DNA of 64,000 nucleotides, from IMG/VR virus record IMGVR_UViG_3300047445_000122; one strand, 5' to 3'. Below, one piece after another: positions 6,799 through 43,105 of this stretch. A program made the position numbers and the translations under genes. The notes below the pieces were generated by a model. It was not told where the DNA came from and made no database searches. It was given only the letters and a program-made list of their open reading frames with translations. The stretch is from a virus (lineage: Duplodnaviria; Heunggongvirae; Uroviricota; Caudoviricetes). Numbering within the stretch: position 1 is the first letter of the stretch; each line of letters opens with the position of its first letter.

Positions 6799-6838
6799 TC
6801 GACCCACCGAAGCAGCGCCCCGGAGGGCGCTTTTCATC

Positions 6839-7424: not shown

Positions 7425-7712
7425 GGCTCTGTTGTACGTATCCCACGATTCCTTGTGGCGTTCATACTCACGCACTACGTCCCGGAACCAGGCGGTCATC
7501 TCATTCACAGGGAAGCGACTGGCTTGACCCTCGTTGTACTGGATCCCCGTTCCCGGCGATTCCCAGACCCGCTTGTGGTACTTGAACTTGAAGCCAAAAA
7601 TCTTGACTTCCTTCTGAACATACAAGCGGACAACAGCCTTGGAGTATTCAGCAACCGTCCAGCGACATTGATAGTCACCCAGACGGCCTTTGATCAACAT
7701 GGAGTTGCGCAT
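7416..7712 (-). CDS. hypothetical protein (98 aa)
   Basis: Complete ORF, coupled to the upstream ACP-fusion gene, followed by the terminator at 7376..7424. Confidence 0.4.
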   Translation of the reverse strand: MRNSMLIKGRLGDYQCRWTVAEYSKAVVRLYVQKEVKIFGFKFKYHKRVWESPGTGIQYNEGQASRFPVNEMTAWFRDVVREYERHKESWDTYNRATK

Positions 7713-20646: not shown

Positions 20647-20647
20647 G

Positions 20648-21724
20648 TTACTCCATAATGTTGAATTTGCGGAACGGCGACCAGGTCACGGCGCTCAGGA
20701 GGTCGCCTTGGAGGCGGCGCGTTACGCGGTGTTGGTAGATCACACCCTTCTTCGACAGGATATATCCATACACCAGAGCAGCGTATTCATACATCAGGTC
20801 GCCGTAACCGACAGCATAGCGATCAAAGATGTCTTCGATCTGGTTCCAGTGTTTGCCCCTCTCAGCTTCCAGGATTTCAGTGGTCTGGGTGATCATGGAA
20901 CCGTATTGAGCAATCAGCTCGCTGAAGAAGTGTTCCCACACCAGGTGACCGCCAACTGGACCAACCAGAGCAACATCATTCTCATGGAAGTTCTGTTTCT
21001 CCTCCAGGACAGCATCGAACTGGTCAATGAAGTCGCTGTAGACGTGGGCATTGGTGACGTGCCAGCGGTAGGAACCCAGCTTCACAGTCGGGTGGATCTT
21101 CTTCACCTCATTGTACATCAGCTCGTGGATGAAACTGAACTCGAATGGGTTGATCGAGCCAGTACCAAACAACAGGTCGCCAGAGCGTTGGATACACTTG
21201 GTGTGGAACTCACCATTCTCCACATAGAAGTGGAGCTCACGATTGCATGGGATGTCTTTTGGTACATGACCTTCACCATACACAGCTTCGATGGCTTCCA
21301 GGTTGTCGATGGTTGGGTCAGCAATCGTGACGAAGGAGCGGCGGGTGTTGATACCGTCATTGCGGAATTGATCAACAGCAGTCTGGAACTGGCTGTAACG
21401 ATGGAGGCGAGGGCCGTATGCGCCGTGCCAGGTAACTCCATCATCGCTGTAGTTCTTTGCGCGGGGCAGGAAGAAGTCCAGGTATGGGGTCACTGCGTTG
21501 GCTCCAGCCATGACCCAGAAGGTCTCAGCGATCAGCTGGAAGATGTTGGATTTGCGTCCGTGGAGGTGTAGGTGGCGGGAGCGGGGATTTTTGAACTCCA
21601 GCGTCGTGTCGTACATCGCCAGAGCGTACCCATTGCGGGTGTCTTGTTTGATACCTTCCTTTTGAAGGGCTTGGAAGGCTCGGTGGATTGTGTGTGAGAC
21701 GGTGTTGCCTCGGATAGTTCTCAT
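20648..21724 (-). CDS. ThyA-superfamily enzyme (thymidylate synthase or dUMP/dCMP hydroxymethylase) with about 90-aa C-terminal extension
   Basis: ThyA landmarks in order: RNGYA, ETFWVM, YGP, NTRRSFVT, catalytic PCN, QRSGDLLFG...N, AHVYS. The sequence continues a further 90 aa beyond the canonical fold. Confidence 0.75.
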   Translation of the reverse strand: MRTIRGNTVSHTIHRAFQALQKEGIKQDTRNGYALAMYDTTLEFKNPRSRHLHLHGRKSNIFQLIAETFWVMAGANAVTPYLDFFLPRAKNYSDDGVTWHGAYGPRLHRYSQFQTAVDQFRNDGINTRRSFVTIADPTIDNLEAIEAVYGEGHVPKDIPCNRELHFYVENGEFHTKCIQRSGDLLFGTGSINPFEFSFIHELMYNEVKKIHPTVKLGSYRWHVTNAHVYSDFIDQFDAVLEEKQNFHENDVALVGPVGGHLVWEHFFSELIAQYGSMITQTTEILEAERGKHWNQIEDIFDRYAVGYGDLMYEYAALVYGYILSKKGVIYQHRVTRRLQGDLLSAVTWSPFRKFNIME

Positions 21725-22093: not shown

Positions 22094-23275
22094 TCATTTC
22101 TGTTTCTTCTCTTTGGCGAGCAGGTAGCTGTTGGAGATAACCTTGAAGGTGAACTCCGGGCGGGTCGTGGACTTGTACACATGGCCCTCACGCTTGACGT
22201 CCTTGTTCATGCCTGGGCCTTCAGCCAGTTCCAACAGCTTTGGAACAATCAAGTCGCCCTCGTTCATCAGTTCACTCAGTGGACCAATGAAGTCGATTGG
22301 GGTGTGCTTGACCTCGAATTCATCGGCCATCGCTTGGCGCTCGGCGGCAGTCCAGTACTTCTGCTTGTCAATGTCATACACATCAAACAGGCGGAACTCC
22401 AGGCCTTTGACCTTCTCGTGGTTGTCCTGGATGTTAGGTGCCAGGAGCTCACCTTGGAGGGCATGGGAGCCGTCCAGGCATTCCAGAACTTGGATCAGTT
22501 GTTGGTTATTCACAGCGGCCCAGAAGTTCGAGCCGTCATCGTCGCGCAGTTGCAGGTTGCGCGAGCAAACAGCAGTCACAGGCTCCTTGTACAGACCGAA
22601 CTTGAGCTTGAAGCCGTGTATCAGCTTCCGAATCAAGCCTGGATTCGAGGCTTTGAACTTGAGGTTGATCGCTTCATTGAAGTGTTTCGAGTCCGGGCGA
22701 ACCAGATACGCAGTCAGGGAGGAGCCATCCAGCTTGATCGTGCGCTCAAACACCTCACCCTTGTGGGTGGCAGAGCTCACGGTTTGAACCATGTTCTGGA
22801 CACGCGGTTGATCGGTCTTCGACACGAAGGAAGGAAACACGCGGATTGCGCCGCCGCCATTCGATGCGCCGCCGTTGTTGGTCTTGGCTTCCTCAACAGG
22901 CTCCCACTTCACAATCTTCAGATCGCTGGTGACGTCATCGCCTTCTTTCCAGTTGATCAGCTTCAGTTCCTTGAACTCCTGGATTGGCATCAACAGACCC
23001 TGGGACAGAGTACCACGCAGCTTGATGGTCTTGACACGCATACCGCGACGGCCATCCCAGTTGCTAAAGCGCTCCTCAAAGGAAGCATAGCGTGGATCAG
23101 AGGCATCAAGCCAGCTGTCCACTTCCATGTACACGGCCAGATCGCCTTCCATGTACAGTCCTTTCTGGACCACACATTGCCAGCCGTCGATCAGGGCCAG
23201 TTGAATCTTGTCAGCGCCTTCGATAGGCAGCAGTTGTGAGATGCGGCGAATTGTCGCCAGCTTACGTTCAGTCAT
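22094..23275 (-). CDS. ATP-dependent RNA/DNA ligase-family nucleotidyltransferase with a 180-aa N-terminal domain (Rnl5/DraRnl-like architecture)
   Basis: Motif I KLDGSS about 180 aa from the N-terminus. Start reassigned to ATG 23275 (MTERK) with GGAG SD. Confidence 0.45.
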   Translation of the reverse strand: MTERKLATIRRISQLLPIEGADKIQLALIDGWQCVVQKGLYMEGDLAVYMEVDSWLDASDPRYASFEERFSNWDGRRGMRVKTIKLRGTLSQGLLMPIQEFKELKLINWKEGDDVTSDLKIVKWEPVEEAKTNNGGASNGGGAIRVFPSFVSKTDQPRVQNMVQTVSSATHKGEVFERTIKLDGSSLTAYLVRPDSKHFNEAINLKFKASNPGLIRKLIHGFKLKFGLYKEPVTAVCSRNLQLRDDDGSNFWAAVNNQQLIQVLECLDGSHALQGELLAPNIQDNHEKVKGLEFRLFDVYDIDKQKYWTAAERQAMADEFEVKHTPIDFIGPLSELMNEGDLIVPKLLELAEGPGMNKDVKREGHVYKSTTRPEFTFKVISNSYLLAKEKKQK

Positions 23276-23399
23276 TGATACTCCGGGAATAGGATATGAA
23301 GATGCGTCCTGGACACGCGAGAGCATGGCTAGGAGCAGTGAGGAGGGGATGACCCAAGGATAGGGTCACAAAGCGGGAGGAGACAGCCCGGAACGGGCC

Positions 23400-28564: not shown

Positions 28565-29611
28565 TTAAATCAGGCTGTGCGTTGTCGCTTTCGGCTGGGG
28601 AGCGCCTGCGCCGTTGTACTTCGAGCGTACTTGACCACCTTCCTTCAGCCGCAGATACTTGTCTGTTTCGCACAACAGGTTACTGCCGATGTTGTGGGCA
28701 TCTTCGAGGTGGAATTGTACAAGGGCTTCAACTTCAGCGCTGTAGCCATGCTGAATAGCAACTTGTGGCAATGCGACCTTCACCGCCTCCGACAGTTGAG
28801 CAAGCTCAAGGTAGTGTTGAGCTACCGGGATGGACTTGGTCAGTGGGCGACCATGAAGGCGATTCAAGAAGCGAACCGGGCCAGGGCCGATTGGCGCCCA
28901 GGTCTTCCAATCCGGGGCATCGCGCATGGTCATGTACTTCAAGTCTGCGATTTGCTGACCTGCCATGAAGTCACCGTTGGACTTGGCCTTGGTGAGGCGG
29001 CTGTGATAGCTCTGAAGGGTCTCCCCGGCTTCTGGCGGGCCAATTTCATAGATCGCCTTGAAGACGACATGAGCCAGGAAGTAGCGCTTGTCCTTGCACT
29101 TCTCGTACAACTCCAGGTCACCATCGACTTCAGCCGGGTTCCCGCAACCACGGATCATGTAGGCACCGGTGAACAGCTTGTCTTCCCTGCCGACAGCGCA
29201 GAAGCGGGTATACAGGTCATCAGCGTCATAGCCGTTCGTCAAGTCAGTCCAACCCAGCTTCAGGACGGTCGGAGACCAGTTGATCCAGCGCGCTACAGCG
29301 ACGTTGAACCACATGTCCTTGGAGTGATGATGTGGAGTGTAGAACTCCTTGAACAAAATCTCAGTCTCCTTGTCGTGCATGCGGTTGACGTTACAAAAAC
29401 GATGGTCGCGGATGAAGGTGTCTTCGGTCCACGGCTTGGGTTGACCTTCAGCTTTCTTGATGCGGACGGTCTCCCGCTCCAGTGCCCACTCACAGGCAGC
29501 GATCACATGGTTATGATAGTTGGCGGCGAACTCACCGTTGGCCTTGATCTGGTCTTCCAGGGTCTGGGACAGTTCAACAGCCTTGTCAAGTTTTTCAATC
29601 AGTGTGTTCAT
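28565..29611 (-). CDS. hypothetical protein (348 aa); candidate DNA-modification enzyme
   Basis: Conserved-looking globular protein with no motif I can name. Coupled by an ATGA overlap to the downstream P-loop kinase gene. Confidence 0.45.
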   Translation of the reverse strand: MNTLIEKLDKAVELSQTLEDQIKANGEFAANYHNHVIAACEWALERETVRIKKAEGQPKPWTEDTFIRDHRFCNVNRMHDKETEILFKEFYTPHHHSKDMWFNVAVARWINWSPTVLKLGWTDLTNGYDADDLYTRFCAVGREDKLFTGAYMIRGCGNPAEVDGDLELYEKCKDKRYFLAHVVFKAIYEIGPPEAGETLQSYHSRLTKAKSNGDFMAGQQIADLKYMTMRDAPDWKTWAPIGPGPVRFLNRLHGRPLTKSIPVAQHYLELAQLSEAVKVALPQVAIQHGYSAEVEALVQFHLEDAHNIGSNLLCETDKYLRLKEGGQVRSKYNGAGAPQPKATTHSLI

Positions 29612-30396
29612 ACAAAGAACCCTCCCAGGGCATTGGATGTTGGTTTCGGCTCCTCCTTCGGAGCAGGAGCATATTGGGCGATCATTTCTGGGGTCGGCGC
29701 CACTTGACCCATATCAGTCCAGCGCTTGAGCTCAGCGTTGCGCTTGTTGATGTCGAACTTGCGAATGAGGCGATAATCCACATCAGACAAACCGTCAGTA
29801 GCAAGCAAATTCAACATCTGTAAGACATCATTCCGGTCGCCATAGTGCGTCCAGATACCATAGTCAACCGCCTTGTTATGGGAGGTCATGACTGGGCGAT
29901 ACTTGGCACAGACCTTGTCAGTATCCAGAGGATCAATGTTGCCCTTCGAGACCCGGCGCTTCAGGATCGAGTTGAACACCACTTCAGGGTCAATATCAAT
30001 GGTGAACCAGAAGTATGGCACGTTGGCTGTCTTGAGGTCATCATAGATCACTTGAGAACCCTTGAAGGTTGTAGACGACAGCACACCCTCTGCCAGAGTG
30101 GTCTTGATCTTGGCCAGGTGCATGATAGCACGCTGTCCGGCCTCAAACGACTTCATGCCTTGGTCAGTCTTCTTGTCGTGGGTGCCCTTTACAGCGTCCA
30201 GACCACCACAGTCAGTCTCATACTTGCCAACGATGTGATGGGTACCACAGTCATAGTAGTGACAGCCGAACTCCGGGAGGTGTTTCAGCTCAGCATTGGG
30301 CGGCAGGAAGTTGCGGATGATGGTGCTCTTGCCAGTACCATTGGTGCCACGGATATTGATGTATCCAGGATCACCCCATTTCCAGTTTGGGTTCAT
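29608..30396 (-). CDS. P-loop kinase-family protein (polynucleotide / nucleotide kinase-like)
   Basis: Walker A GTNGTGKST within the first 30 residues. No HAD phosphatase DxDGT motif. Confidence 0.5.
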   Translation of the reverse strand: MNPNWKWGDPGYINIRGTNGTGKSTIIRNFLPPNAELKHLPEFGCHYYDCGTHHIVGKYETDCGGLDAVKGTHDKKTDQGMKSFEAGQRAIMHLAKIKTTLAEGVLSSTTFKGSQVIYDDLKTANVPYFWFTIDIDPEVVFNSILKRRVSKGNIDPLDTDKVCAKYRPVMTSHNKAVDYGIWTHYGDRNDVLQMLNLLATDGLSDVDYRLIRKFDINKRNAELKRWTDMGQVAPTPEMIAQYAPAPKEEPKPTSNALGGFFV

Positions 30397-31469: not shown

Positions 31470-32327
31470 TCATTGCGCCGACTTGAACATGGTAGGCATG
31501 GTACCCAGATACTGGATCTTGGTATCGCGCAGTGCTTCAGCCTGCATGCGAGCAATTTCCATCTGCATGACTTGCGGGTTGTTACGATAGGCTTGACCAC
31601 GCAGTTCGATGGCCTTGGCTTCAGCTTGAGCGACTTCCACTTGGGCTTGAGCGGTCACAACAACCTTCTCTTGCTCGGCCTTGGTGCGGCGCACTTCGTT
31701 CTCCACCTTCATGGCGTCCTGAGTCGCTTGAATCTTGGCATTGATCGAGGCCACAACGTTATCCGGGAAGTGCAGCTTGCCCAGGTAGCTGATGGATTCA
31801 ACCGTGATACCGATGGTGGCGGCGCGTTTGATTACAGCGTCATTGACTTCCTTCAGCAGCTTGGCCTTGCCGTCGCCTTGCAGGGACTCAACATCATACT
31901 TGGTGCCGGCTTCGTTGAACTCGTCACGAACGAACGTGCGCAGGAAACTGTCGCTGATGACGTCGATGGGCTGGCGGTACTTCTGGAACACCTTGATGGC
32001 GTTCGCCTTCTCCACATGGTAGGAGATTTGGATGTCCGTGGACACGCCGATACCACCGGCCACCTGGAACTGGATCGACTGATCCGGCTTCTTGCTCTCT
32101 TCACTGCGGGCTGTCCACATGTCGGCTTGGGTGAAGGTCGGCAGCAGTTCCACGCTGGTGTTCCAGCCAGCCATGTAGCGACCTGGATCCAGAACCTTGG
32201 AGTCAACGCCACGGTCATCACCGAACTTGTTGAACTGGACGCCAACAAAGCCGTTCGGGACGTTGTTACAGGCCGACAGGCCCAGAGCCAGGGCGGCGAT
32301 AGCTACGAAACGCATCAGACGGTTCAT
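31470..32327 (-). CDS. SPFH/band-7 (stomatin/HflC-like) domain lipoprotein
   Basis: SPFH core with a coiled-coil tail (EVRRTKAEQEK...). Start reassigned to ATG 32327, giving the lipobox MNRLMRFVAIAALALGLSAC. The stop of the upstream small membrane ORF overlaps this ATG. Confidence 0.65.
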   Translation of the reverse strand: MNRLMRFVAIAALALGLSACNNVPNGFVGVQFNKFGDDRGVDSKVLDPGRYMAGWNTSVELLPTFTQADMWTARSEESKKPDQSIQFQVAGGIGVSTDIQISYHVEKANAIKVFQKYRQPIDVISDSFLRTFVRDEFNEAGTKYDVESLQGDGKAKLLKEVNDAVIKRAATIGITVESISYLGKLHFPDNVVASINAKIQATQDAMKVENEVRRTKAEQEKVVVTAQAQVEVAQAEAKAIELRGQAYRNNPQVMQMEIARMQAEALRDTKIQYLGTMPTMFKSAQ

Positions 32328-32536
32328 TGACATACCACCTTGTTCTGGTTGTACAGATGGGTCAGGTACTTGATAGTGAAGTACGCCGCCAGGGCGGTTC
32401 CGACCAGAGCCAGGACCAGCAGAATGGAGGATGCGATTTTCAGGATCGCAGGCAGGACGAAGCCGGTGAAGACCAGCCACAGTACGATGACCAGCAGCAG
32501 TCGCACCACCAGGCCAAATTCTTTGGAATTAAACAT
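32324..32536 (-). CDS. small 2-TM membrane protein (NfeD-like partner of the SPFH protein?)
   Basis: Hydrophobic 70-aa ORF, translationally coupled (ATGA) to the SPFH gene. Confidence 0.4.
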   Translation of the reverse strand: MFNSKEFGLVVRLLLVIVLWLVFTGFVLPAILKIASSILLVLALVGTALAAYFTIKYLTHLYNQNKVVCQ

Positions 32537-34854: not shown

Positions 34855-34892
34855 GAAAAAGCCCCTGGACGGACCAGGGGCTTTTTGTATTT
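34855..34892 (-). terminator. terminator at the end of the tRNA array
   Basis: AAAGAAAAAGCCCCTGGAC-g-GACCAGGGGCTTTTTG, immediately 3' of the last tRNA (minus sense). Confidence 0.7.
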
Positions 34893-34970
34893 TGGTGCCC
34901 GTTGCACGGATTTGAACCTGCGACCCCACCCTTACAGGGGGCGTGCTCTACCAGACTGAGCTAAACGGGC
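34893..34970 (-). tRNA. tRNA, probably Thr (anticodon TGT)
   Basis: Perfect acceptor stem GCCCGTT/AACGGGC plus encoded CCA, and a D-arm TAGCTCAGTCTGGTAGAGC. Anticodon loop reads CCTGTAA. T-stem is imperfect by eye. Confidence 0.5.
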
Positions 34971-34971
34971 T

Positions 34972-35046
34972 TGGCATACCGGGATGGGATCGAACCACCG
35001 ACACCAGGTTTTGGAGACCTGTGTTCTACCACTGAACTACCGATAC
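34972..35046 (-). tRNA. tRNA-Trp (CCA)
   Basis: Manual cloverleaf: anticodon loop CTCCAAA, T-loop TTCGATC, encoded CCA end. Confidence 0.7.
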
Positions 35047-35228
35047 ATTGTGTTGTTACTTATACTGCTTGGCCAGAGCCATCAGACCCTTCGCAGCTTC
35101 ATCGCCATAGGTCTTGAAGAATGCTTCAGTGGTCTTGTCATAGATGCTCTTGGCCAGAGCTGGATTCTTGTCGTCCAGAGCCTTAGCCAGCTGACTACCT
35201 TTGGCGGCGTGCGTATCCTTGTAGCGGA

Positions 35229-35516
35229 TCACTTGATCACAACCAGGATGTCTTCGTTGGACAGGATCAGATATTCCACGCCGTCAACCTTCACACCCTG
35301 ACCGGCGCCACGCTTGTGGACGATCTTGTCGCCCTTGTGGAAGGGTTCTGATTCACGCAGAGCGCCGGTGCTGACGTGGGAGACTTCAACCACAATGCCT
35401 TCAGAGACAGAAGCAGCAGGAGCCGGGGCGACGATGATACCGCCAGCTGAGGTTTCAGGGGCGGATTCACGCGTGATCACGCAGTAGCCTGGAGTTGGCT
35501 TGATTTGTTTGGACAT
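35229..35516 (-). CDS. GroES-like co-chaperonin (Hsp10; T4 gp31 analogue)
   Basis: IVHKRGAGQGVKVDGVEYLILSNEDILVVI matches the GroES C-terminus. Start set to ATG 35516 (MSKQIKPT) with AAGGAAA SD, because the longer track ORF would run into tRNA genes. Confidence 0.7.
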   Translation of the reverse strand: MSKQIKPTPGYCVITRESAPETSAGGIIVAPAPAASVSEGIVVEVSHVSTGALRESEPFHKGDKIVHKRGAGQGVKVDGVEYLILSNEDILVVIK

Positions 35517-35534
35517 GGTTTCCTTTTGATTGAA

Positions 35535-35608
35535 TGGAGGCGTGTGGGTGAATCGAACACCCGTCTTAGGCTTTGCAGGCCCAGACCTAACCACTCAGAC
35601 AACACGCC
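35535..35608 (-). tRNA. tRNA-Cys (GCA)
   Basis: Perfect acceptor stem, anticodon loop CTGCAAA, T-arm GGGTG TTCGATT CACCC. D-arm is unusual. Confidence 0.6.
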
Positions 35609-35614
35609 ATTGAT

Positions 35615-35697
35615 TGGTGGGGATACAGGGACTCGAACCCAGACGCCGAAGCCGGAGCGTTTGAAACTCCTGTGTCTACCAATTTCACCATATCCCC
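35615..35697 (-). tRNA. tRNA-Leu (CAA), class II
   Basis: Anticodon stem GGAGT/GCTCC with loop TTCAAAC, and a long variable arm. Confidence 0.6.
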
Positions 35698-35818
35698 AAA
35701 TTTCAACACCATCCTTACGCCCTCGCCCATCTATCGTGACAAGTTAGCAGAACTTCGGTGCACCTCACTTCAAGCAGTGCTGGCTACGCTGCACGGACTG
35801 CCGAATGATGTTGAAATT

Positions 35819-35894
35819 TGGAGCGGGTGACAGGTCTCGAACCTGCGCATGCCGGCTTGGAAGGCCAGTGCTTTACCAACTTAGCTACACCCGC
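35819..35894 (-). tRNA. tRNA-Gly (TCC)
   Basis: Perfect acceptor stem GCGGGTG/CACCCGC, anticodon loop CTTCCAA, encoded CCA. Confidence 0.8.
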
Positions 35895-35896
35895 AA

Positions 35897-35972
35897 TGGC
35901 GCCCAGGGCCGGAATCGAACCAGCGACACGTGGATTTTCAGTCCACTGCTCTACCAACTGAGCTACCTGGGC
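35897..35972 (-). tRNA. tRNA-Phe (GAA)
   Basis: Acceptor stem GCCCAGG/CCTGGGC, anticodon loop CTGAAAA, T-loop TTCGATT. Confidence 0.8.
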
Positions 35973-36107
35973 ATTGAAGCGTTTTGCATGGAAGTAGACT
36001 TCAATGCTATTCATGGACAATATACGCTGACTAGAACTGTAGAGACAGGGATGAGAACGTACAATGCTGCTTCACCACATATCAGGGAGCGACCCAGAAC
36101 ATTCAAT

Positions 36108-36193
36108 TTGGTGCGAACGGAGGGACTCGAACCCATCACGCCTAGTGGCACATCCCCCTCAAGGATGCGTGTCTGCCAATTTCACCACGTTCG
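36108..36193 (-). tRNA. tRNA-Leu (GAG), class II
   Basis: Anticodon stem CATCC/GGATG with loop TTGAGGG, and a long variable arm. Confidence 0.65.
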
Positions 36194-36269
36194 CATTGCC
36201 CCGGAGCCTGAAGAAACCATCCGGGCAGACCTGCTTCAGATCAAGTCTGGGGAGCAACCCCGCTAGAAC

Positions 36270-36524
36270 TCAATTCAACAAGCGACTCAACAACCGCTGG
36301 CTCTTGTTTCCATGTTTGGGTGAGTTGATGGTGACGTCCGGGAAGTCTGACTTGTTGAGCTGACGCCCAATCCGAGTCTCAAGACAACCCACGCACAACA
36401 TACCAACTATCGACCCAACAACCTTCATCCACAAATCAGTGTTGATGAAGTAGTGCTCGTTGGCCTTGCCGGTGTCTACACAGCAATCCAAACACAGCCA
36501 CTTTCGTCTTGATTTACACGCCAT
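36270..36524 (-). CDS. small Cys-rich protein (84 aa) embedded in the tRNA array
   Basis: The CLDCC...CVGC pattern suggests a zinc-ribbon-like fold. No tRNA overlaps it. Confidence 0.35.
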   Translation of the reverse strand: MACKSRRKWLCLDCCVDTGKANEHYFINTDLWMKVVGSIVGMLCVGCLETRIGRQLNKSDFPDVTINSPKHGNKSQRLLSRLLN

Positions 36525-36541
36525 GTGACTCCCATATCAAT

Positions 36542-36618
36542 TGGCGCGCCGAAGTGGACTTGAACCACTGACCCTGGGATTAGAAGGCCCATGCTCTATC
36601 CAGCTGAGCTACCGGCGC
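36542..36618 (-). tRNA. tRNA-Arg (TCT)
   Basis: Acceptor stem GCGCCGG/TCGGCGC, anticodon loop CTTCTAA (one mismatched closing pair), T-loop TTCAAGT. Confidence 0.55.
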
Positions 36619-36629
36619 GGCGCTGTTCG

Positions 36630-37151
36630 TTATGGAAGAATTATAAGTGAGGAGGTCAGAGGAGCAGAAACTTGTACTTGCTTCTCAACCACAACGTAGA
36701 AGCGGGAGAATGCCGCTGCCTTCTTGGACACTGGATACGGTCGCCTCATCAACTGACACTTAACCTTAGTCCAGAATCCCACCTTGATATCCACCAATTC
36801 AGTGATGTCAGCGGCGAAGCGGAACAGACCTCCAGTGGTATCAGCATCCAACATCTTACGCAGTTGTTCGCCGCCAGGAGTGTTGAAGACTGAGATCAGC
36901 ATGGTCTTGTCATGATCCATCTTGGTGACCAGGAAGTCGGCATATTCACTCGACTTGTCCAGACTGCCATAGATCACATCCACGAGGCCGTATTGAGCCT
37001 TGGTAGGGCGCTTACCCTCTCCCAGCCATTCCACGTTTTGAGCTTCCTGGGCTTTGTTCAGGGCATCGATGGCGTCAGTGTAGTCCAAGTCTGCCAGTGC
37101 GCCACGAGGCTCGAACTGGACTTGGTACTCACCAATGATTTCTTGTAGCAT
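36630..37151 (-). CDS. hypothetical protein (173 aa) within the tRNA array
   Basis: Complete ORF flanked by tRNA genes. Confidence 0.45.
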   Translation of the reverse strand: MLQEIIGEYQVQFEPRGALADLDYTDAIDALNKAQEAQNVEWLGEGKRPTKAQYGLVDVIYGSLDKSSEYADFLVTKMDHDKTMLISVFNTPGGEQLRKMLDADTTGGLFRFAADITELVDIKVGFWTKVKCQLMRRPYPVSKKAAAFSRFYVVVEKQVQVSAPLTSSLIILP

Positions 37152-37231
37152 ACACGCCCTCTTGATGTTCGGAGCAGCCTTCCACTGAAGGAGGTCAAGG
37201 AAAGGAGGAAAACTTGACGGCTGCGGTTGAT

Positions 37232-37309
37232 TGGTCTCCGCGACAGGATTTGAACCTGCGACCCCTCGCTCCCAAAGCGAGTGCTCTACACGGGCTGAGC
37301 TACACAGAG
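37232..37309 (-). tRNA. tRNA-Pro (TGG)
   Basis: C1-G72 acceptor stem (typical of tRNA-Pro), anticodon stem CTCGC/GCGAG with loop TTTGGGA. Confidence 0.7.
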
Positions 37310-37506
37310 AATGTTAGGTGTCAATGCTGGATTGTTGTGGAAGGATTTCAAGTGTTATGCCCTTGTTCTCCAACATTGACGGGGATGGTCGGCAGACTAC
37401 CCTTATGTAGTGTGACATTCCTCCAACCGGACATATTCTAACGCATGTTGGCGTCTAGTCTATCCGGCGGAATGCCGTTTTGGTTTTAAACTACTGCCGT
37501 TTGATC

Positions 37507-37582
37507 TTGGTGGTAGGGGCAGGGATCGAACCTGCGACCTGTGGATTATCGGTCCACTGCTCTGCCAACTGAGCTACCCCAC
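37507..37582 (-). tRNA. tRNA-Ile (GAT)
   Basis: Perfect anticodon stem GTGGA/TCCAC with loop CCGATAA. Note C at position 33. Confidence 0.6.
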
Positions 37583-37597
37583 CGGGTTGGTACTTAG

Positions 37598-37685
37598 ACC
37601 ATACATAACAACACTCGCGCCTTCTCTGAACATGTAGGCACTGTAGTGGGTTTCTGTTCCTCAGGAGGAGTGTTGTTATGTATGG
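37598..37685. repeat. 18-bp perfect inverted repeat (CCATACATAACAACACTC / GAGTGTTGTTATGTATGG) with a 52-nt loop
   Basis: Seen directly in the sequence. The right arm overlaps the 3' end of tRNA-Ser(TGA) by 3 nt. Confidence 0.6.
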
Positions 37686-37775
37686 CGGAAATGGTGAGAC
37701 TCGAACTCACACAGCGGTTGCCCGCCCTTCAGTTTTCAAGACTGCTGCCGCTAGGCCAACTCGGCTAACATTTCC
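37683..37775 (-). tRNA. tRNA-Ser (TGA), class II
   Basis: Acceptor stem GGAAATG/CATTTCC, anticodon loop CTTGAAA, long variable arm. Confidence 0.65.
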
Positions 37776-37776
37776 G

Positions 37777-37868
37777 TGGCGGAGACTGTTGGATTTGAAC
37801 CAACGGAGCCACTTGCGTGACTCGGTGCCTTAGCAGGGCACTGCAATAGACCGCTCTGCCAAGTCTCC
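37777..37868 (-). tRNA. tRNA-Ser (GCT), class II
   Basis: Acceptor stem GGAGACT/AGTCTCC, anticodon stem GTGCC/GGCAC with loop CTGCTAA, long variable arm. Confidence 0.7.
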
Positions 37869-38221
37869 AGTGTTTGGTGTGATCTCCTTGATACCGCCTC
37901 AGACCCTGTCTATGCATTCGGGCGTCACACTCTTCAGGTTTCAATCCCGGTTACAGCGTCCGGGGAACTAACGCCAGGCCCACTAGACGGAGGCTGGTGC
38001 TCTGTTGTACTGACTCTCTCAAATTGCACTTGAGGGCGTGTGCGCGGGAGTCTGCTTTTGCCCTGAATTCTGTCCACCCGAAAATCAAGTACATCCACTG
38101 TCCGCTGACTGGAAGCGGGGTTCGTATCAATCTTGATGTTGGGAAAGGGTGTCTCCATCTGATTCCAACGTTGCCTCCAACCCCTCTCGACCAGTCAGCC
38201 CGATACTCATTGGATATTCTG

Positions 38222-38296
38222 TGGCCGGAAGGACAGGAATCGAACCTGTGTACCAAGGCTATCCCGCCCCTGCTCTACCAACTGAGCTACCTCCCG
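38222..38296 (-). tRNA. tRNA-like gene with unresolved anticodon (possibly degenerate)
   Basis: Good acceptor, D and T arms (ACAGG TTCGATT CCTGT) and an encoded CCA. The anticodon arm does not fold canonically by eye. Confidence 0.4.
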
Positions 38297-38369
38297 GAAG
38301 CACAACCCATATTCCTGCAATCAGCATGCGTTCCCAATGGATTGTGGCCGTTCTATCACGACTGTCAAC

Positions 38370-38447
38370 TGGTTGCGACGGGCTGGATTTGAACCAGCGA
38401 CCTGAGGATTATGAGTCCTCTGCTCTACCTGACTGAGCTACCTCGCC
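38370..38447 (-). tRNA. tRNA-Met-like (CAT) with an imperfect acceptor stem
   Basis: Anticodon stem GAGGA/TCCTC with loop CTCATAA. The 3' end GCAACCA resembles an initiator tRNA. Two acceptor-stem mismatches including 1-72. Confidence 0.5.
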
Positions 38448-38454
38448 TTTGATC

Positions 38455-38530
38455 TGGCGCCGTGAGCTGGATTTGAACCAACGTGACACCCGCAACATGG
38501 GTGCATCCTAAGCCTCTAGATGATCACGGC
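38455..38530 (-). tRNA. tRNA with a GTT anticodon (Asn-like) and an atypical anticodon loop
   Basis: Perfect acceptor stem GCCGTGA/TCACGGC. Anticodon stem CACCC/GGGTG with loop ATGTTGC. Confidence 0.4.
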
Positions 38531-38618
38531 AAAACTACTGAAGTGAGAATCCTCTACATCGCGGCGGCAAGGACGCATCAGGCGTCCAATGTAGTTGACT
38601 CTCGCTTCAGGAGTCTGA

Positions 38619-38694
38619 TGGCGTCTCCAACGAGATTTGAACTCGTGTACCCACCTTGAAAGGGTGGTGTCCTAGACCGCTAGACGATGGAGAC
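38619..38694 (-). tRNA. tRNA-Glu (TTC)
   Basis: Near-identical architecture to E. coli tRNA-Glu: TCGTCTAGCGGTCTAGGACACC..CTTTCAA. Confidence 0.8.
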
Positions 38695-38696
38695 AG

Positions 38697-38778
38697 TGGA
38701 AGGGGCGACAGGATTTGAACCTGTGACGTATGCTGGGATCAAAACCCAGTGCCTTGAACCGAACTTGGCGACACCCCT
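38697..38778 (-). tRNA. tRNA-Gln (TTG)
   Basis: Anticodon stem CTGGG/CCCAG with loop TTTTGAT. A1-U72 acceptor stem. Long D-loop. Confidence 0.55.
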
Positions 38779-38786
38779 ATTGTTTT

Positions 38787-38863
38787 TGGCTCCCCAGGCT
38801 GGACTCGAACCAGCGACCAACACATTAACAGTGTGCTGCTCTACCAAACTGAGCTACTGAGGA
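38787..38863 (-). tRNA. tRNA-Asn (GTT)
   Basis: Anticodon loop CTGTTAA, D-arm TAGCTCAGTTTGGTAGAGC, T-loop TTCGAGT. Confidence 0.75.
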
Positions 38864-38920: not shown

Positions 38921-38953
38921 ATTATAGACCACTTCTGCTAAGAAGTAAAGCTC
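38921..38953 (-). promoter_or_regulatory. promoter of the tRNA array
   Basis: Minus strand reads GCTTTACTT..GTGGTCTATAAT, about 55 nt upstream of the first (highest-coordinate) tRNA. The 24-nt leader is identical to the one at 43684..43711. Confidence 0.55.
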
Positions 38954-38972
38954 AACTTACTTGACAACCGAA

Positions 38973-39890
38973 TTACATGTTGTTGTCGTACATCCACTGC
39001 ATCTGCGCCTTCACGTTTGCGAGGGAACCCACGATCACGTAGTTGACGAAGATGTAAACGCCGTCTGGGACGATGTTAGGGATGCGGAACACAGCATTCC
39101 ACTTCACAACCGGGTTGATGCCAGTCGCCTGATAGTTCCAGCGACCGAAACCCGCACCAGGGTAAGTCGATTGTGGCAGGGAACGGTTGTAGATACCCAT
39201 TGCATGAGTACCATTGCTGTTAGCGAAGATCAGCGGAAGACCTTGTTCAGGGCTGCAAGTCGCATAGGGCGGCGTGCAGTAGCTGATCGAGGCCAGTTGA
39301 CGACTGCCCTTCACATCCAGGGTGTAGAAGTTGTTGAACTCAACAGGCATGTAGCCGGTCAGGGTCTCGAACTTACCACGCACCCAGGATGGTTCGCCGG
39401 TGCTCTTGGGTGCTGCGTATTGAACTTCATAGCGCATGTAGGTCGCATAGGAACCTTCATACAGCTGGATGTTCTTGGTCAGCAACCAGTTGGACCGGGC
39501 CACACCGTTCACAGGGCGCCAGTACGACATCATGTTCACGCCCTTGACGGTCGGAGGAGTCGCCAGGGTGCTGTAGTTCACAGCGATACTCGTGGAGGCA
39601 GAAGGATTGACGCCGTTGTAGGGCACTTCCGCCCCGGCTTCGTTGGGGTTGTAGTTCTCTTCCAGGTCGCCAGACGCATTGCTGACAGTCATGGAGGATT
39701 GGAGTTGACGGCCATGGTCATAGTCGTCAATGAACTCCTTGCCGCTCCACTTCACGGAGCAAACTGCTTCAGCATCCCAGGAGCAGGTCTTAACAGTCAC
39801 ACCACGCGACGGCGAGGTGATAGTGTAGTCTGCCCAAGCCGGGGAGGAGATACCAACGATCATTGCCATTGCTGCGATAATACGCTTCAT
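38973..39890 (-). CDS. secreted protein of unknown function (306 aa)
   Basis: Start reassigned to ATG 39890 (AAGGAAA SD), giving the signal peptide MKRIIAAMAMIVGISSPAWA. Several Cys pairs. Confidence 0.5.
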   Translation of the reverse strand: MKRIIAAMAMIVGISSPAWADYTITSPSRGVTVKTCSWDAEAVCSVKWSGKEFIDDYDHGRQLQSSMTVSNASGDLEENYNPNEAGAEVPYNGVNPSASTSIAVNYSTLATPPTVKGVNMMSYWRPVNGVARSNWLLTKNIQLYEGSYATYMRYEVQYAAPKSTGEPSWVRGKFETLTGYMPVEFNNFYTLDVKGSRQLASISYCTPPYATCSPEQGLPLIFANSNGTHAMGIYNRSLPQSTYPGAGFGRWNYQATGINPVVKWNAVFRIPNIVPDGVYIFVNYVIVGSLANVKAQMQWMYDNNM

Positions 39891-39989
39891 GCCATTTCCT
39901 TTATGGTTGTTTTCTTTCGCGCCGCCCCGAATGAGGCGACGGAAAGAATTATAAACCACAATATCAACGGCGTAAAGATCAATATTTTA

Positions 39990-40511
39990 TCAACCCATCT
40001 TCTTCCCCGCTTGGATCAGGCGTTTCCGCTTGATCTTGAAGCTGTCGGATGAAGTCCCGCCGAACATCTCAGCATTCGCATACAGTTCGGCCCAGGCAGT
40101 GAGGTACAACATGTGAGAGAGTGGATGTTTCCACAACTCCACTACGTCATCCCCGCGCCGGGTGTGGAACTCCATGTCCATCCTCATGAGTTCAGCAACG
40201 GTATTGTCCTCAGGATAGAGGGCCAGCCATTGAGCAGCGCTCGCTTGGGCATGATCCGGGAACCTACCAGACCCGTCAGCAACAAGTGGCTTCCCGCAGT
40301 CGTGATAGATTTGATAGGTCTCCAGGATCAAGTCATCGTGGACATCGATCTTGCTTTTCAAGAAGGAGTAGTGAGGGCAGGTATCATCAGTCAGCTTCAG
40401 ATACGCCTCCCGCACCCTATAACCATGCTCTAAGACATTCAAGCTGGTTGTTTGGGACGTTTCCTGCATCAGCTGCTCTAAAGCGCCTATAGTGGCCGCT
40501 AGATGTCTCAT
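39990..40511 (-). CDS. HD-domain phosphohydrolase
   Basis: H...HD motif (HYSF...IYHDCGK). Start ATG 40511 overlaps the stop of the PTH2-like gene (ATGA). Confidence 0.5.
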   Translation of the reverse strand: MRHLAATIGALEQLMQETSQTTSLNVLEHGYRVREAYLKLTDDTCPHYSFLKSKIDVHDDLILETYQIYHDCGKPLVADGSGRFPDHAQASAAQWLALYPEDNTVAELMRMDMEFHTRRGDDVVELWKHPLSHMLYLTAWAELYANAEMFGGTSSDSFKIKRKRLIQAGKKMG

Positions 40512-41350: not shown

Positions 41351-41428
41351 TGGTGCGTCGTACAGGAATCGAACCCGTGACCTGTCTGGTTAGGCGCCAG
41401 ACTGCTCTGCCAACTGAGCTAACAACGC
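41351..41428 (-). tRNA. tRNA-Arg (CCT)
   Basis: Acceptor stem GCGTTGT/ACGACGC, anticodon stem TCTGG/CCAGA with loop CGCCTAA, T-loop TTCGATT. Confidence 0.5.
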
Positions 41429-41432: not shown

Positions 41433-41519
41433 TGGTGGGCGTGGTTGGATTTGAACCAACGAAGTACAGAGACACCGGATTTACAGTCCAGCGCAGATTA
41501 CCGCATCTGCAACACACCC
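41433..41519 (-). tRNA. tRNA-Tyr (GTA), class II
   Basis: Anticodon loop CTGTAAA, long variable arm, acceptor stem GGGTGTG/CACGCCC. Confidence 0.65.
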
Positions 41520-41557
41520 ATTACTGCTGGCTACAGTGTATATAGCCAGCAGGTTTC

Positions 41558-41761
41558 TTACATTTCCGACAACGCCGATTCGATCTGGCGCTTGCTATGC
41601 TTGTCCCGCTTTGGGACTACATGAGCCCCGCCCTTGCGAAGGATATTGCTATCCTCACTTGGCTTGTGACGGGGCTTCATAGCCTGTTGACGCTGTTCAC
41701 GGCTGCTCTTCGTCATGACCGCGTCTTGCACGAAGCCATTGCGATACTGGTTGGTACGCAT
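41558..41761 (-). CDS. small basic protein (67 aa)
   Basis: Lys/Arg-rich and probably disordered; coupled to the upstream gene. Confidence 0.3.
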   Translation of the reverse strand: MRTNQYRNGFVQDAVMTKSSREQRQQAMKPRHKPSEDSNILRKGGAHVVPKRDKHSKRQIESALSEM

Positions 41762-42236: not shown

Positions 42237-42896
42237 TTACAGAGCCAGCTTGATGTGGGTAGTGGCGTTCACAGCCGACAGGGCGTAGTCGATTTCATCG
42301 GTCACGGCTGCGATCTCATCTTCCAGAGTCTTGATCAGGGTCTTGACGTCCAGTGGGTCGATCATGTTCAGCTCGTGCATGTCCATGATCGCATCCTTGG
42401 TGGAAGTGATCAGAGCCTGGTTCTGCTCGACTGCGGACTTGTTCTTCACATCAGTGCCCAGCAGGCGGTCGATGGAGCCTTGAACATTGGTCTCGATCTC
42501 CAGGCGGGAGCGTTCCATGTTGTTGGCGGCTTGTGCCAGCTGCAGCTTCAGAACGGCGACCAGGGATTGCTTGTAGGCAACAACATTCTTCATGTCGATT
42601 GCTTCCACGATGGACATTTCCTTGCCATTGATGGTGACCTTGGTTTTGACGTTCGCTTCAGCGATGGCGAACTTGATCGCACTGCGGCGCTTGATCAGAT
42701 CGTCCAGGGACTGATGATTGGACTTGATCGCGGCGGCGACTTCGGCGGCGTCCTTGAACTGGGCCAGAATCGGCTTCGGTTCCTTGCGACCCTTGGTCAG
42801 GGACACGAACAGGGTGGTTGGCTTGGTAGCCGCCAGGATACGTGCATCCAGGGTCTTCAGCTCGACCAGAGCGCGGTTCAGCAGAATTTCAGACAT
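42237..42896 (-). CDS. coiled-coil hypothetical protein (219 aa)
   Basis: Complete ORF downstream of a roughly 800-nt untranslated leader. Confidence 0.45.
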   Translation of the reverse strand: MSEILLNRALVELKTLDARILAATKPTTLFVSLTKGRKEPKPILAQFKDAAEVAAAIKSNHQSLDDLIKRRSAIKFAIAEANVKTKVTINGKEMSIVEAIDMKNVVAYKQSLVAVLKLQLAQAANNMERSRLEIETNVQGSIDRLLGTDVKNKSAVEQNQALITSTKDAIMDMHELNMIDPLDVKTLIKTLEDEIAAVTDEIDYALSAVNATTHIKLAL

Positions 42897-42911
42897 TATG
42901 TAGCTCCTTTA

Positions 42912-43105
42912 GGGTTGATCTTTACGTGTATCCATTGAGATGTTCACCACATTACAGCCTGGCGTACACTCATGGGCCTATTATTGGTCACCACTCAAAC
43001 GATAGCCCAGGATTTCATGAACTGTCAGCTTTGTCGTTTGCGAGAAGCATCTTTACCAATAGTCATCTTTGCGGGTTGATCTTTGCCCATTAATCTTTGA
43101 CCTTT
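42912..43105. repeat. cluster of short direct repeats (T/C)ATCTTT(A/G)C(C/G), at least 5 copies (iteron-like)
   Basis: TTGATCTTTACG 42915, GCATCTTTACC 43047, GTCATCTTTGCG 43063, TTGATCTTTGCCC 43076, TAATCTTTGACC 43091. Confidence 0.45.

Follow-up and report, generated by a model that had tools for sequence, protein, structure and literature searches.

Why does a tailed phage carry a dense array of transfer RNA (tRNA) genes, several of which appear to have non-canonical anticodon loops? The array lies on the minus strand at positions 34893-38863 of the window, the whole stretch of 64,000 nucleotides (nt) of IMG/VR virus record IMGVR_UViG_3300047445_000122 that was analyzed here. The initial annotation, made by manual folding, had left it undecided whether the odd members were folding errors or genuine atypical phage tRNAs, possibly decoys or suppressors. 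We conclude that the region is very likely a phage tRNA operon that contains genuine, conserved variant tRNAs. An anti-defence reason for the variants, which we propose below, is possible, though it falls short of even. If operon, variants and reason are taken together as one explanation, a single figure is a compromise and would stand at about even.

ARAGORN was run over the whole window, and Infernal was used with the Rfam tRNA model RF00005 (gathering score 29 bits), with permissive filters for the 7-kilobase (kb) region and default filters otherwise. ARAGORN returned 20 tRNA genes: all 18 that had been placed on the minus strand within 34893-38863, at the same coordinates, and the additional Arg-CCT (41351..41428) and Tyr (41433..41519) genes. 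At default filters 18 of the 20 passed RF00005, and at permissive filters all 20 scored above 29 bits. The two that needed permissive filters were 38458..38530 (45.5 bits) and tRNA-Leu(GAG) (38.6 bits), which together with tRNA-Ser(TGA) (35 bits) had the lowest scores. The anticodon set covers 15 amino acids; there was no Ala, Asp, His, Lys or Val tRNA among the 20 genes in the ARAGORN anticodon table. The same table held no CUA, UUA or UCA anticodon, so that no member reads a stop codon and the idea of suppressors finds no support. CCA is encoded by all 20 genes, in the Met gene after an extra A and outside the ARAGORN call.

Uridine at position 33 (U33) is nearly invariant in cellular elongator tRNAs and ranks with the best conserved nucleotides in biology. 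A seven-base anticodon loop with U33 and a purine at position 37 was found in 16 of the 20 genes. The other four, tRNA-Thr(UGU) and tRNA-Ile(GAU) with C33, tRNA-Arg(CCU) with G33, and the gene at 38222..38296, are homologous to tRNAs but depart from the textbook form in having a non-canonical loop. A regular acceptor stem of 7 base pairs (bp) and T stem of 5 bp was lacking in the Met gene (bulged G and G1.A72) and in the Thr gene (extra G). About 12 of the tRNAs are canonical. Rather than giving canonical folds for all members, the tRNA finders kept the odd features obtained by hand: C33 in the Thr and Ile loops (CCTGTAA and CCGATAA), the GCAACCA 3' end and irregular acceptor stem of the Met-like gene, and the loop ATGTTGC at 38455..38530. 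Two further features, G33 in tRNA-Arg(CCT) and the extra nucleotide in the Thr T stem, were absent from the initial list. We also considered alternative registers that would place U at position 33 of the Thr, Ile and Arg genes, and no alternative with a 7-nt loop exists.

The manual folding was reason enough to consider folding, sequencing or assembly errors, and these are scarcely credible as the source of the odd features. ARAGORN and Infernal agree on the folds, the features occur in GenBank phage genomes, and the 11 kb around the array are 100% identical in four independent assemblies from different samples (Joint Genome Institute [JGI] and Logan), which shows that the odd bases are not assembly noise. 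Of the two readings left by the initial annotation, the genuine atypical tRNA is the one that stands, since the folds are reproduced and most of the features recur in other phages. The members with unusual structures are as follows.

37508..37583, minus strand: tRNA-Ile(GAU) with C33 (Rfam 68.9 bits)
34893..34970, minus strand: tRNA-Thr(UGU) with C33 and an extra T-stem G (Rfam 52.7 bits)
41351..41428, minus strand: tRNA-Arg(CCU) with G33 and a 6-bp anticodon stem (Rfam 48.4 bits)
38370..38447, minus strand: initiator-like tRNA-Met(CAU) (Rfam 60.9 bits)
38455..38530, minus strand: second tRNA with a GUU anticodon, loop AUGUUGC and an Asp-like body (Rfam 45.5 bits)
38222..38296, minus strand: tRNA-like gene with an Asn-like body, G73 and CCA (Rfam 49.9 bits)

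Apart from its C33 loop, the tRNA-Ile(GAU) gene is a perfect cloverleaf with the second-best score of the set. The loop CCGATAA was first noticed among BLAST matches, in tRNA-Ile of Pseudomonas phage PaGz-1 and Erythrobacter phage XM05. In an unbiased IMG/VR scan for tRNA-Ile, in which the D arm and GATAA were fixed and positions 26-33 were left free, position 33 was U in 47, C in 32 and A in 1 of the first 80 among the matches listed (77 unique sequences). Alignment of the C33 genes showed that the acceptor, anticodon and T stems all diverge yet stay paired. The C33 loci are dense in tRNA genes (median, 10 per locus) and an Ala-TGC neighbour was found in only 2 of 31 of them, indicating that these are not the tRNAs of bacterial rRNA operons. 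Among cultured phages, C33 tRNA-Ile(GAU) is carried by PaGz-1, XM05, Aeromonas phage 44RR2.8t and Rhizobium phage RHph_Y65, and likewise by Pakpunavirus relatives of PaGz-1. Two of the C33 loci belong to Aeromonas T4-like phages, one of them (L180) being 44RR2.8t itself by BLAST, and the C33 gene is annotated as tRNA-Ile in the records of 44RR2.8t and phage 31. At loci obtained with another Ile pattern, all other tRNAs had C33 in about 2% (22 versus 1179). The window gene fits a phage class that we define here by the GAU anticodon, the loop C/U-C-G-A-U-A-A, a cloverleaf fold and location in a viral array. No paper in the searchable literature described C33 as a common conserved state of phage tRNA-Ile(GAU) and of a subfamily of tRNA-Thr(UGU), and the widespread C33 variants appear to be undescribed there.

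In the samples examined, Glu was the next commonest C33 isoacceptor after Ile. One IMG/VR contig (L020, 3300028804_000033) carries two tRNA-Glu(UUC) genes, at 6768..6842 and 9481..9555, with the loop CCTTCAC, which differs from that of E. coli tRNA-Glu by having C in place of U33. Xanthomonas phage BUDD (L567) carries an unannotated tRNA-Val(GAC) with C33 and the loop TCGACAT at 1501..1576.

In the tRNA-Thr(UGU) gene, C33 is combined with a T arm, GCAGG-TTCAAAT-CC[G]TGC, that has an extra G in its 3' strand. An IMG/VR scan for C33 only gave at least 105 tRNA-Thr(UGU) genes (at least 95 unique) with the loops CCTGTAA or TCTGTAA, and in the matching unbiased scan 3 of 77 genes had C33. C33 tRNA-Thr(UGU) is therefore a minority variant that is numerous in absolute terms. 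Among the matches listed, 12 of the 105 C33 genes also have an extra T-stem nucleotide (GCRGG..CC[N]TGC), and this subfamily with both traits supplies 9 of the 12 best matches of the window Thr gene, at 76-81% identity. Its acceptor stems differ in sequence but pair. The inheritance of two "defects" together across divergent genes points to a conserved subfamily, not to decay.

The third tRNA without U33, tRNA-Arg(CCU), has a 6-bp anticodon stem (GTCTGG/CCAGAC) and the loop CGCCTAA. No relative with the same feature was found among viral loops, BLAST matches or phage tRNA folds, and of the whole set this gene is the likeliest to be defective. All three window tRNAs without U33 decode ANN codons and carry U36-A37-A38; they make up 3 of the 7 loops of that kind, compared with 0 of the 12 others (Fisher p = 0.036).

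For the Met-like gene, the best reading of the terminal strands is 5' GGCGAGG and 3' CC[G]TCGC-A-A-CCA. In this reading the acceptor stem begins with an unpaired G1.A72 and continues with G2-C71, C3-G70, G4-C69 and A5-U68, a bulged G, and G6-C67 and G7-C66. A73 and CCA follow, positions 8 and 9 have the canonical U and A, and GAGGA/TCCTC forms the anticodon stem. The determinants for formylation of the bacterial initiator tRNA (tRNA-fMet) are well established, and the window gene has those of the acceptor end: no 1:72 pair, G2-C71, C3-G70, G4-C69 and A73. These are the same in E. coli tRNA-fMet, as is the A73-CCA end GCAACCA. The gene differs from bacterial tRNA-fMet in having G1.A72 instead of C1xA72, an extra bulged G in the acceptor stem, two of the three anticodon-stem G-C pairs (G29-C41 and G30-C40, followed by A31-U39), and C11-G24 instead of A11-U24 in the D stem GCTC/GAGC. 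The phage genes that match it best, in Stenotrophomonas phage Philippe and Rhizobium phage RHph_X66, are annotated as tRNA-Met and have the ends of the E. coli initiator, CGCGGGG..CCCCGCAACCA; the anticodon stem GAGGA/TCCTC is identical in Philippe, and RHph_X66 has the same stem. In a more distant relative, contig L010, the Met gene ends GGCGGGG..CCCCGCAACCA with the same G1.A72, and the initiator-like Met gene of RHph_Y65 has a bulged A where the window gene has the bulged G. Judged by its sequence, 38370..38447 is a predicted initiator-type tRNA.

Two more genes are related to Asn in different ways. The gene at 38455..38530 forms a good cloverleaf, and its loop ATGTTGC gives A32, U33, the anticodon GUU, G37 and C38. 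Its only phage BLAST matches were mycobacteriophage tRNA-Asp genes. The tRNA-Asp of mycobacteriophage Nanosmite has similar D and T arms and also G37, in the loop CTGTCGA. C38 and G73 are Asp-like features, and the gene looks like an Asp-type body with a GUU instead of a GUC anticodon. The tRNA identity rules of asparaginyl- and aspartyl-tRNA synthetases are established, and because of its GUU anticodon and G73, this tRNA should be charged by asparaginyl-tRNA synthetase. The loop ATGTTGC was found in 0 of 63 other viral Asn-GUU loops, and the gene is without the U36-A-A-U motif that is common to the targets of the PARIS nuclease AriB.

The gene at 38222..38296 had been described as having good arms and no foldable anticodon stem. 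The arms stand, the acceptor, D and T arms being normal and followed by G73 and CCA; the second part does not, since a stem of 5 bp does form and the abnormality lies in the loop. ARAGORN folds the anticodon arm with 4 bp plus G.G and the loop CGGGATA, which has G33, and the other fold has a 5-bp stem, GGGGC/GCCTT, with the six-base loop GGGATA. The body is closest to phage tRNA-Asn genes. A homologue in Xanthomonas phage JGB6 (82% identical, unannotated) has a 5-bp stem and the six-base loop GCGTGA; those in contigs L010 and L110 lie directly after a normal Asn-GTT gene and have the loops AATTAGG and AATTTGG, respectively; and that in IMG/VR locus L119 has a 4-bp stem and the six-base loop ATAGCA. 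The homologues have the same acceptor stem, and their anticodon stems vary but all pair, while the loops share nothing. Xanthomonas phage RTH11 has a truncated copy. By analogy with the tRNA-like stable RNAs of phage T5, 38222..38296 probably does not decode and would be a comparable tRNA-like RNA derived from tRNA-Asn. The pattern of homologues fits either such a non-decoding RNA or repeated decay. Among the odd members, a decoy role is plausible only for this one. The JGB6 homologue (L123) lies at 3001..3072, where no feature is annotated, just upstream of SPFH/prohibitin genes.

An origin of this gene from tRNA-Phe, considered for the acceptor stem of a locus, L091, was dropped in favor of the Asn-like body. 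A search with the pattern GGTAGCTCAG..CCTTCCGGCCA gave 0 matches in IMG/VR and 6 in GTDB genomes, all by chance. In the JGI metagenome set, which does not include the contig of the window, the matches were mostly by chance and included one real tRNA-Phe with the same acceptor stem. The 5'-half pattern CGGRAGGTAGCTCAGTT led to two viral contigs whose tRNAs have insertions of 50-100 nt and were judged unrelated. In these contigs (L114, 3390..6183, and L121, 525..3588; IMG/VR, about 190 kb), genes of 120-177 nt score 45-50 bits with the Rfam tRNA model, and the 50-100-nt insertions, which lie in the anticodon region, are too short for group I introns.

The remaining elements of the array and of the separate two-gene cluster, together with open reading frames (ORFs), are given from the promoter side to the terminator. 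Positions and strands are those of the window; MFE stands for minimum free energy.

41433..41519, minus strand: tRNA-Tyr(GUA), type II, in the separate two-gene cluster (Rfam 46.8 bits)
38921..38949, minus strand: promoter-like TTTACT-N17-TATAAT that matches the consensus at 10 of 12 positions, 58 nt upstream of the first tRNA
38787..38863, minus strand: tRNA-Asn(GUU) with the canonical loop CTGTTAA (ARAGORN; Rfam 67.5 bits)
38697..38778, minus strand: tRNA-Gln(UUG), 82 nt; D loop enlarged, variable region of 8 nt (Rfam 54.1 bits)
38619..38694, minus strand: tRNA-Glu(UUC), canonical (Rfam 62.1 bits)
37777..37868, minus strand: tRNA-Ser(GCU), type II (Rfam 54.1 bits)
37683..37775, minus strand: tRNA-Ser(UGA), type II, weakest Rfam score of the set (35 bits)
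37310..37507, minus strand: structured 198-nt spacer from tRNA-Ile to tRNA-Pro (MFE z = -4.6)
37232..37309, minus strand: tRNA-Pro(UGG) (Rfam 59.2 bits)
36630..37151, minus strand: ORF of 173 amino acids, an ORFan by protein search
36542..36618, minus strand: tRNA-Arg(UCU) with a C-U mismatch at 31:39 (Rfam 59.1 bits)
36270..36524, minus strand: ORF of 84 amino acids with a zinc ribbon, CxxC..CxxC (phrog_6053)
36109..36194, minus strand: tRNA-Leu(GAG), type II, with a weak T stem (Rfam 38.6 bits)
35897..35972, minus strand: tRNA-Phe(GAA), canonical (Rfam 71.6 bits)
35819..35894, minus strand: tRNA-Gly(UCC), canonical (Rfam 66.1 bits)
35615..35697, minus strand: tRNA-Leu(CAA) (Rfam 49.1 bits)
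35535..35608, minus strand: tRNA-Cys(GCA) (Rfam 50.7 bits)
35229..35516, minus strand: GroES-like co-chaperonin, 95 amino acids (Pfam Cpn10, 3e-15; phrog_3188)
35056..35232, minus strand: ORF of 58 amino acids overlapping the GroES stop codon (a gene in JGI and Logan records)
34972..35046, minus strand: tRNA-Trp(CCA) (Rfam 61.7 bits)
34856..34886, minus strand: intrinsic terminator, a 13-bp G+C-rich hairpin with a T run, which reads as a terminator on both strands

The array has the makings of a tRNA cluster of the T4/T5 type, with many co-oriented genes, its own promoter and terminator, and interleaved small ORFs and tRNA-like RNAs (four ORFs, 38222..38296 and the structured spacer). The kind is known, and the window is a new uncultured member of it. 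The initial annotation was right in claiming a conserved promoter and a terminator for the array: the window contains 12 copies of the promoter motif, and a T run follows the 13-bp hairpin. It was also right about the interleaved GroES gene; in place of the two further ORFs that it had counted, three were found. The motif TTTAC-N17-19-TATAAT was found at 804, 6751, 14822, 19048, 25057, 27279, 32575, 38921, 39948, 43706, 44436 and 61026, with 11 of the 12 copies on the minus strand, compared with 0 copies in 100 shuffles, and it is often extended to TGGTCTATAAT. Its sequence and distribution are those expected of an early-promoter motif family, which would mark early transcription units; we take it to resemble the -35 region GTTTAC of T4 early promoters. 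The minus strand is also that of the RIIA, helicase and nucleotide-metabolism genes, and the terminator hairpin immediately precedes the helicase gene. The Tyr and Arg-CCU pair lies 2.5 kb upstream of the main array. A 10-bp hairpin (CTGCTGGCTA..TAGCCAGCAG) at 41541..41568 on the minus strand, between the stop codon of a 67-amino-acid ORF and tRNA-Tyr, may be a processing site rather than a terminator, since it has no T run.

The spacer at 37310..37507 has an MFE of -60.7 kcal/mol, compared with -41.4 +/- 4.2 for shuffled sequences. It gave no Rfam match in the permissive scan, and possibly encodes a small stable RNA of the sort annotated for the tRNA region of T5. The structure of the 353-nt spacer at 37869..38221 was not significant (z = -1.2). 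The order Leu-CAA, Cys, GroES is kept in a relative, contig L007. The 173-amino-acid ORF matched only its own fragment among 5.8 billion proteins. Homologues of the 84-amino-acid phrog_6053 ORF were found in 135 phage records, nearly all tRNA-rich, including Streptomyces phages StarPlatinum and Jay2Jay, Stenotrophomonas phage DLP6, Erwinia phage UCB24 and Mycobacterium phage Nanosmite. The Nanosmite homologue immediately follows a gene for an RtcB-like RNA ligase and is beside the tRNA array; this neighbourhood and the tRNA-rich carriers suggest a tRNA-related role for the ORF.

The window is part of the 165-kb JGI metagenome contig Ga0495669_0000010. The phage markers identify it, as far as protein comparison goes, as an uncultured, distant PhiW-14-like member of the T4 superfamily (a putative myovirus). 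RIIA, the baseplate wedge protein gp6 and a Rad3-type helicase are markers of that superfamily, and UvsX-like and DnaB-like proteins and PhoH are also encoded. The nearest named phage is Delftia phage PhiW-14 (gp6 44.7% and helicase 50% identical), which has no tRNA array beside its helicase gene. INPHARED held no near DNA relative, the sole match being a 63-nt stretch of tRNA-Phe. A single-protein helicase scan of IMG/VR gave no match, and a helicase profile scan gave 79 loci, all at most 52% identical, three of which have a tRNA array beside the helicase gene. The closest helicase relatives (56-67% identical; L007, L008, L009 and L105-L109) are contigs that break at the array or lack it, so that there is no orthologous array to align.

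An RNA ligase gene lies at 22094..23326 on the minus strand (Pfam RNA_ligase, 4e-19, plus a PHA02142 OB-fold domain), and no polynucleotide kinase was seen among the window ORFs scanned. A thymidine-hypermodification set like that of PhiW-14, at 19445..21724 and 28565..29611 on the minus strand, comprises a 5-hydroxymethyldeoxyuridine DNA kinase (HMUDK_hel, 6e-33), a thymidylate-synthase-like enzyme, dUTPase_2 and a protein like deoxynucleoside monophosphate kinases; from this gene content, the phage DNA probably carries modified thymidine. A protein of 452 amino acids (7712..9070, minus strand) combines an N-terminal helix-turn-helix with an acyl-carrier-like domain for phosphopantetheine attachment (PP-binding, 6e-14), which is unusual for a phage early gene, and a Band_7/SPFH gene lies at 31470..32480, about 2.4 kb past the end of the array. 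Genes were called with a restriction to one strand, since length-greedy calling on both strands chose long antisense ORFs; those at 38961..40052, 28577..29707 and 42255..42938 on the plus strand are consequences of codon bias and not genes.

Two related contigs from NCBI metagenome-assembled genomes, L010 (JAWVHA010000297.1, 775..8818) and L110 (JAWVHB010000167.1, 1554..9003), are 158 kb long and have a helicase that is 52% identical. Each has about 21-24 tRNA genes upstream of the helicase gene, with a YqeY-domain protein beside the array. Several of these tRNAs have six- or eight-base anticodon loops (ARAGORN "???"), one has a TTA anticodon, and L110 has an ATA "Tyr". In a distant relative (L028, IMG/VR 3300035661_000043), a tRNA at 15753..15828 has a UUA anticodon in the canonical loop CTTTAAG and the look of an ochre suppressor.

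We then compared the codon usage of the 54 minus-strand early ORFs with that of the 16 plus-strand structural and late ORFs of the window. The comparison with late genes that the initial annotation had called for gave a mixed answer, in that some of the codons matched by the array are enriched and others are not. The enriched codons were these.

TTG, read by Leu-CAA: late 0.318, early 0.157 (p 1e-11)
TCA, read by Ser-UGA: late 0.156, early 0.094 (p 0.0015)
ACA, read by Thr-UGU: late 0.162, early 0.112 (p 0.015)
AGA, read by Arg-UCU: late 0.085, early 0.047 (p 0.044)

AGG is rare in the phage. Codon supplementation explains part of the set, the C33 Thr tRNA included, and the late enrichment of ACA suggests that this tRNA is in use. 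It fails for the tRNAs with G34 (Ile, Asn, Phe, Tyr, Cys, Ser-GCU and Leu-GAG), whose C-ending codons the phage already prefers.

We propose that a transcript would start at the sigma-70-type early promoter (38949..38921), run through the 18 tRNAs and 4 small ORFs, and end at the terminator at 34856..34886, and that host RNase P and 3' processing enzymes would cut it into tRNAs. Part of the canonical tRNAs would provide ordinary codon supplementation. The C33 tRNA-Ile, the C33 tRNA-Thr with its T-stem bulge and the initiator-like tRNA-Met would be working members of conserved variants. As the likeliest of the reasons considered for them, the C33, G33 and A32/G37/C38 loops would keep phage decoding going while host defences attack or modify host anticodon loops, an altered loop being unseen by the host enzyme yet usable by the ribosome. 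As a general rule, which we offer tentatively and hold to be somewhat doubtful, loss of U33 could be a recurrent, selected counter-defence change in phage elongator tRNAs that evades a host enzyme needing U33 and keeps decoding. The evaded enzyme would be either an anticodon nuclease that cuts beside position 33 or the machinery for N6-threonylcarbamoyladenosine at position 37 (t6A37), needed by a toxin or sensor. C33 abolishes t6A37 formation by E. coli TsaBCDE in vitro (PMC8887486), and the C33 tRNAs of the window would be expected to lack t6A. Changes in the anticodon loops of phage tRNAs have been predicted to block VapC, PrrC and colicins (PMC10264068), and variants of T5 tRNA-Lys, Thr and Asn neutralise PARIS AriB (PMC12409363). 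If the proposal is true, the window holds a whole kit against tRNA-directed immunity: three ANN decoders without U33, an Asn reader with G37 and C38, an Asn-like mimic and an RNA ligase.

Several known systems can be set beside this one. The best architectural match is the T5 region (NC_005859, about 28-41 kb), which has about two dozen co-oriented early tRNA genes with small ORFs between them, in common with the window, and also several promoters and terminators, an initiator tRNA, a pseudo-tRNA and the tRNA-like stable RNAs RNA1-RNA3. T5 differs in having U33 throughout and in being an E. coli siphovirus, and the window differs in having GroES within the array and no Ala, Asp, His, Lys or Val tRNA. 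The T4 cluster consists of eight tRNAs and two stable RNAs. T4 shares with the window the T4 superfamily, a single early/middle cluster and an RNA ligase gene; it has small stable RNAs among its tRNAs and a ligase that repairs cleaved tRNA, whereas the window has 20 genes instead of 8 and several non-canonical anticodon loops. Since tRNA-Lys cleaved by PrrC is mended by the T4 tRNA ligase, the window RNA ligase might, by analogy, repair tRNA in the same manner. Phage tRNAs that are insensitive to nucleases are known from mycobacteriophage C1 (VapC), from T5 tRNA-Lys, Thr and Asn (AriB) and from T5 tRNA-Tyr (retron effector) (PMC10264068, PMC12409363, PMC11555353). The window shares isoacceptors targeted by AriB, namely Thr-UGU and the two Asn-GUU readers, and by analogy its tRNAs may be nuclease resistant; the published escape changes are at positions 39-41, at 16 or at VapC sites, and those of the window are at position 33. 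A natural C33 class that functions on the ribosome is the eukaryotic cytoplasmic initiator tRNA-Met (PMC8887486). That initiator binds the P site directly, whereas the phage C33 tRNAs are elongators (Ile and Thr).

A number of observations weigh against the anti-defence proposal and against the conservation of the variants. In the closest relative with data, L105 (helicase 67% identical), tRNA-Thr(UGU) has U33, and phage T5 has no C33 tRNA-Ile and U33 in all its anticodon loops. C33 was also found at about 2% in tRNAs of other phages that do not read ANN codons (Val, Glu, Pro and Gly), so that avoidance of t6A cannot be the general explanation, and we downgraded it accordingly. In E. coli, t6A37 is an identity element for isoleucyl-tRNA synthetase, and a C33 tRNA-Ile without t6A might therefore be charged poorly. 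The late enrichment of matched codons is modest, with none for AGG, CCA, CAA or GAA, and ATC is lower in late genes. The case for C33 as a phage-specific state draws on two things, the location of its carriers in arrays and the textbook view that U33 hardly ever varies. The departure is measured from the universal U33 and the usual viral loops. The tRNA-Arg(CCU) gene with G33 and the gene with the six-base loop are without conserved counterparts that have the same loops, and these two may simply be defective.

How much of the array could be explained without any defence? The set might serve codon supplementation only, the odd positions being neutral variation under a weaker constraint than in cellular tRNAs and the host probably being G+C-rich. 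Phages of G+C-rich hosts typically carry U34 tRNAs for four-codon boxes and readers of AGA, AGG and UUG, late genes are enriched in several of the matched codons, and a C33 background of about 2-4% across many viral isoacceptors could reflect relaxed constraint. Drift of this kind would not be expected to give C33 in 40% of divergent Ile-GAU genes with perfect cloverleaves (among the matches listed), half of the set reads codons that the phage, and presumably its host, already prefers (ATC, AAC, TTC, TAC, TGC, AGC and CTC), and ATC is not enriched in late genes; as a full account, supplementation is on the unlikely side. Decay, by which pseudogenes or dying duplicates would make up 38222..38296, Arg-CCU(G33) and 38455..38530 especially and possibly the Thr and Met genes, we judge to be unlikely. 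A six-base loop or a purine at position 33 is expected to cripple decoding, the loops of the 38222..38296 type are not conserved (GGGATA, GCGTGA, AATTAGG, AATTTGG and ATAGCA), RTH11 has its truncated copy and the T5 cluster a pseudo-tRNA, and AGG is rare in the phage. Each defect, however, is confined to one spot in a gene that has kept its four arms, its conserved tertiary bases and CCA. The anticodon stems of the 38222..38296 type vary in sequence yet all pair, and the Thr and Met bulges and the C33 of Ile and Thr are found again in distant phages, so that recent decay is excluded for these four features.

The odd members, above all 38222..38296, could instead be decoys that mimic a tRNA and occupy a host nuclease, a modifying toxin or a sensor. 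Conservation of the acceptor, D and T arms and G73-CCA next to an anticodon arm that is free to vary would suit such a role, as would the position of the homologues beside a real Asn-GTT gene in L010 and L110. tRNA-Asn is a known target of PARIS AriB (PMC12409363), and T5 has tRNA-like stable RNAs. With only five homologues, no known phage tRNA decoy of such a design, and data that fit decay equally, we consider decoys quite improbable. The tRNA and tRNA-like elements could also serve mainly to punctuate processing, supplying the sites at which RNase P and RNase Z cut one early transcript to free the messenger RNAs for GroES and for the proteins of 58, 84 and 173 amino acids. The gaps between tRNAs and ORFs are short (18 nt from the end of tRNA-Cys to the GroES start codon, 17 nt from tRNA-Arg to the 84-amino-acid ORF downstream of it, and 11 nt between the same tRNA and the 173-amino-acid ORF upstream of it), there are a single promoter and a single terminator, and an element with good arms and a bad anticodon loop would have a reason to be kept. 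Since punctuation leaves unexplained both the recurrence of C33 in specific isoacceptors and the non-redundant coverage of 15 amino acids, it is very unlikely as the reason for the array.

PrrC, PARIS, retrons, Cas13 and Schlafen-like nucleases stop infection by cutting tRNAs, and this tRNA-cutting immunity prompts a re-examination of why phages carry tRNAs. Several genes of the kind described here have gone without annotation in the GenBank records of phages, those of JGB6 and BUDD among them. The presence of C33 in about 40% of viral tRNA-Ile(GAU) genes (among the matches listed) and in a tRNA-Thr subfamily points to a specific, widespread and as yet unnamed selection on the phage anticodon loop. 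Should a host nuclease or a modification-dependent toxin exert this pressure, the C33 tRNAs would lead to it; otherwise, elongator tRNAs would work without the uridine of the U-turn more often than has been assumed.

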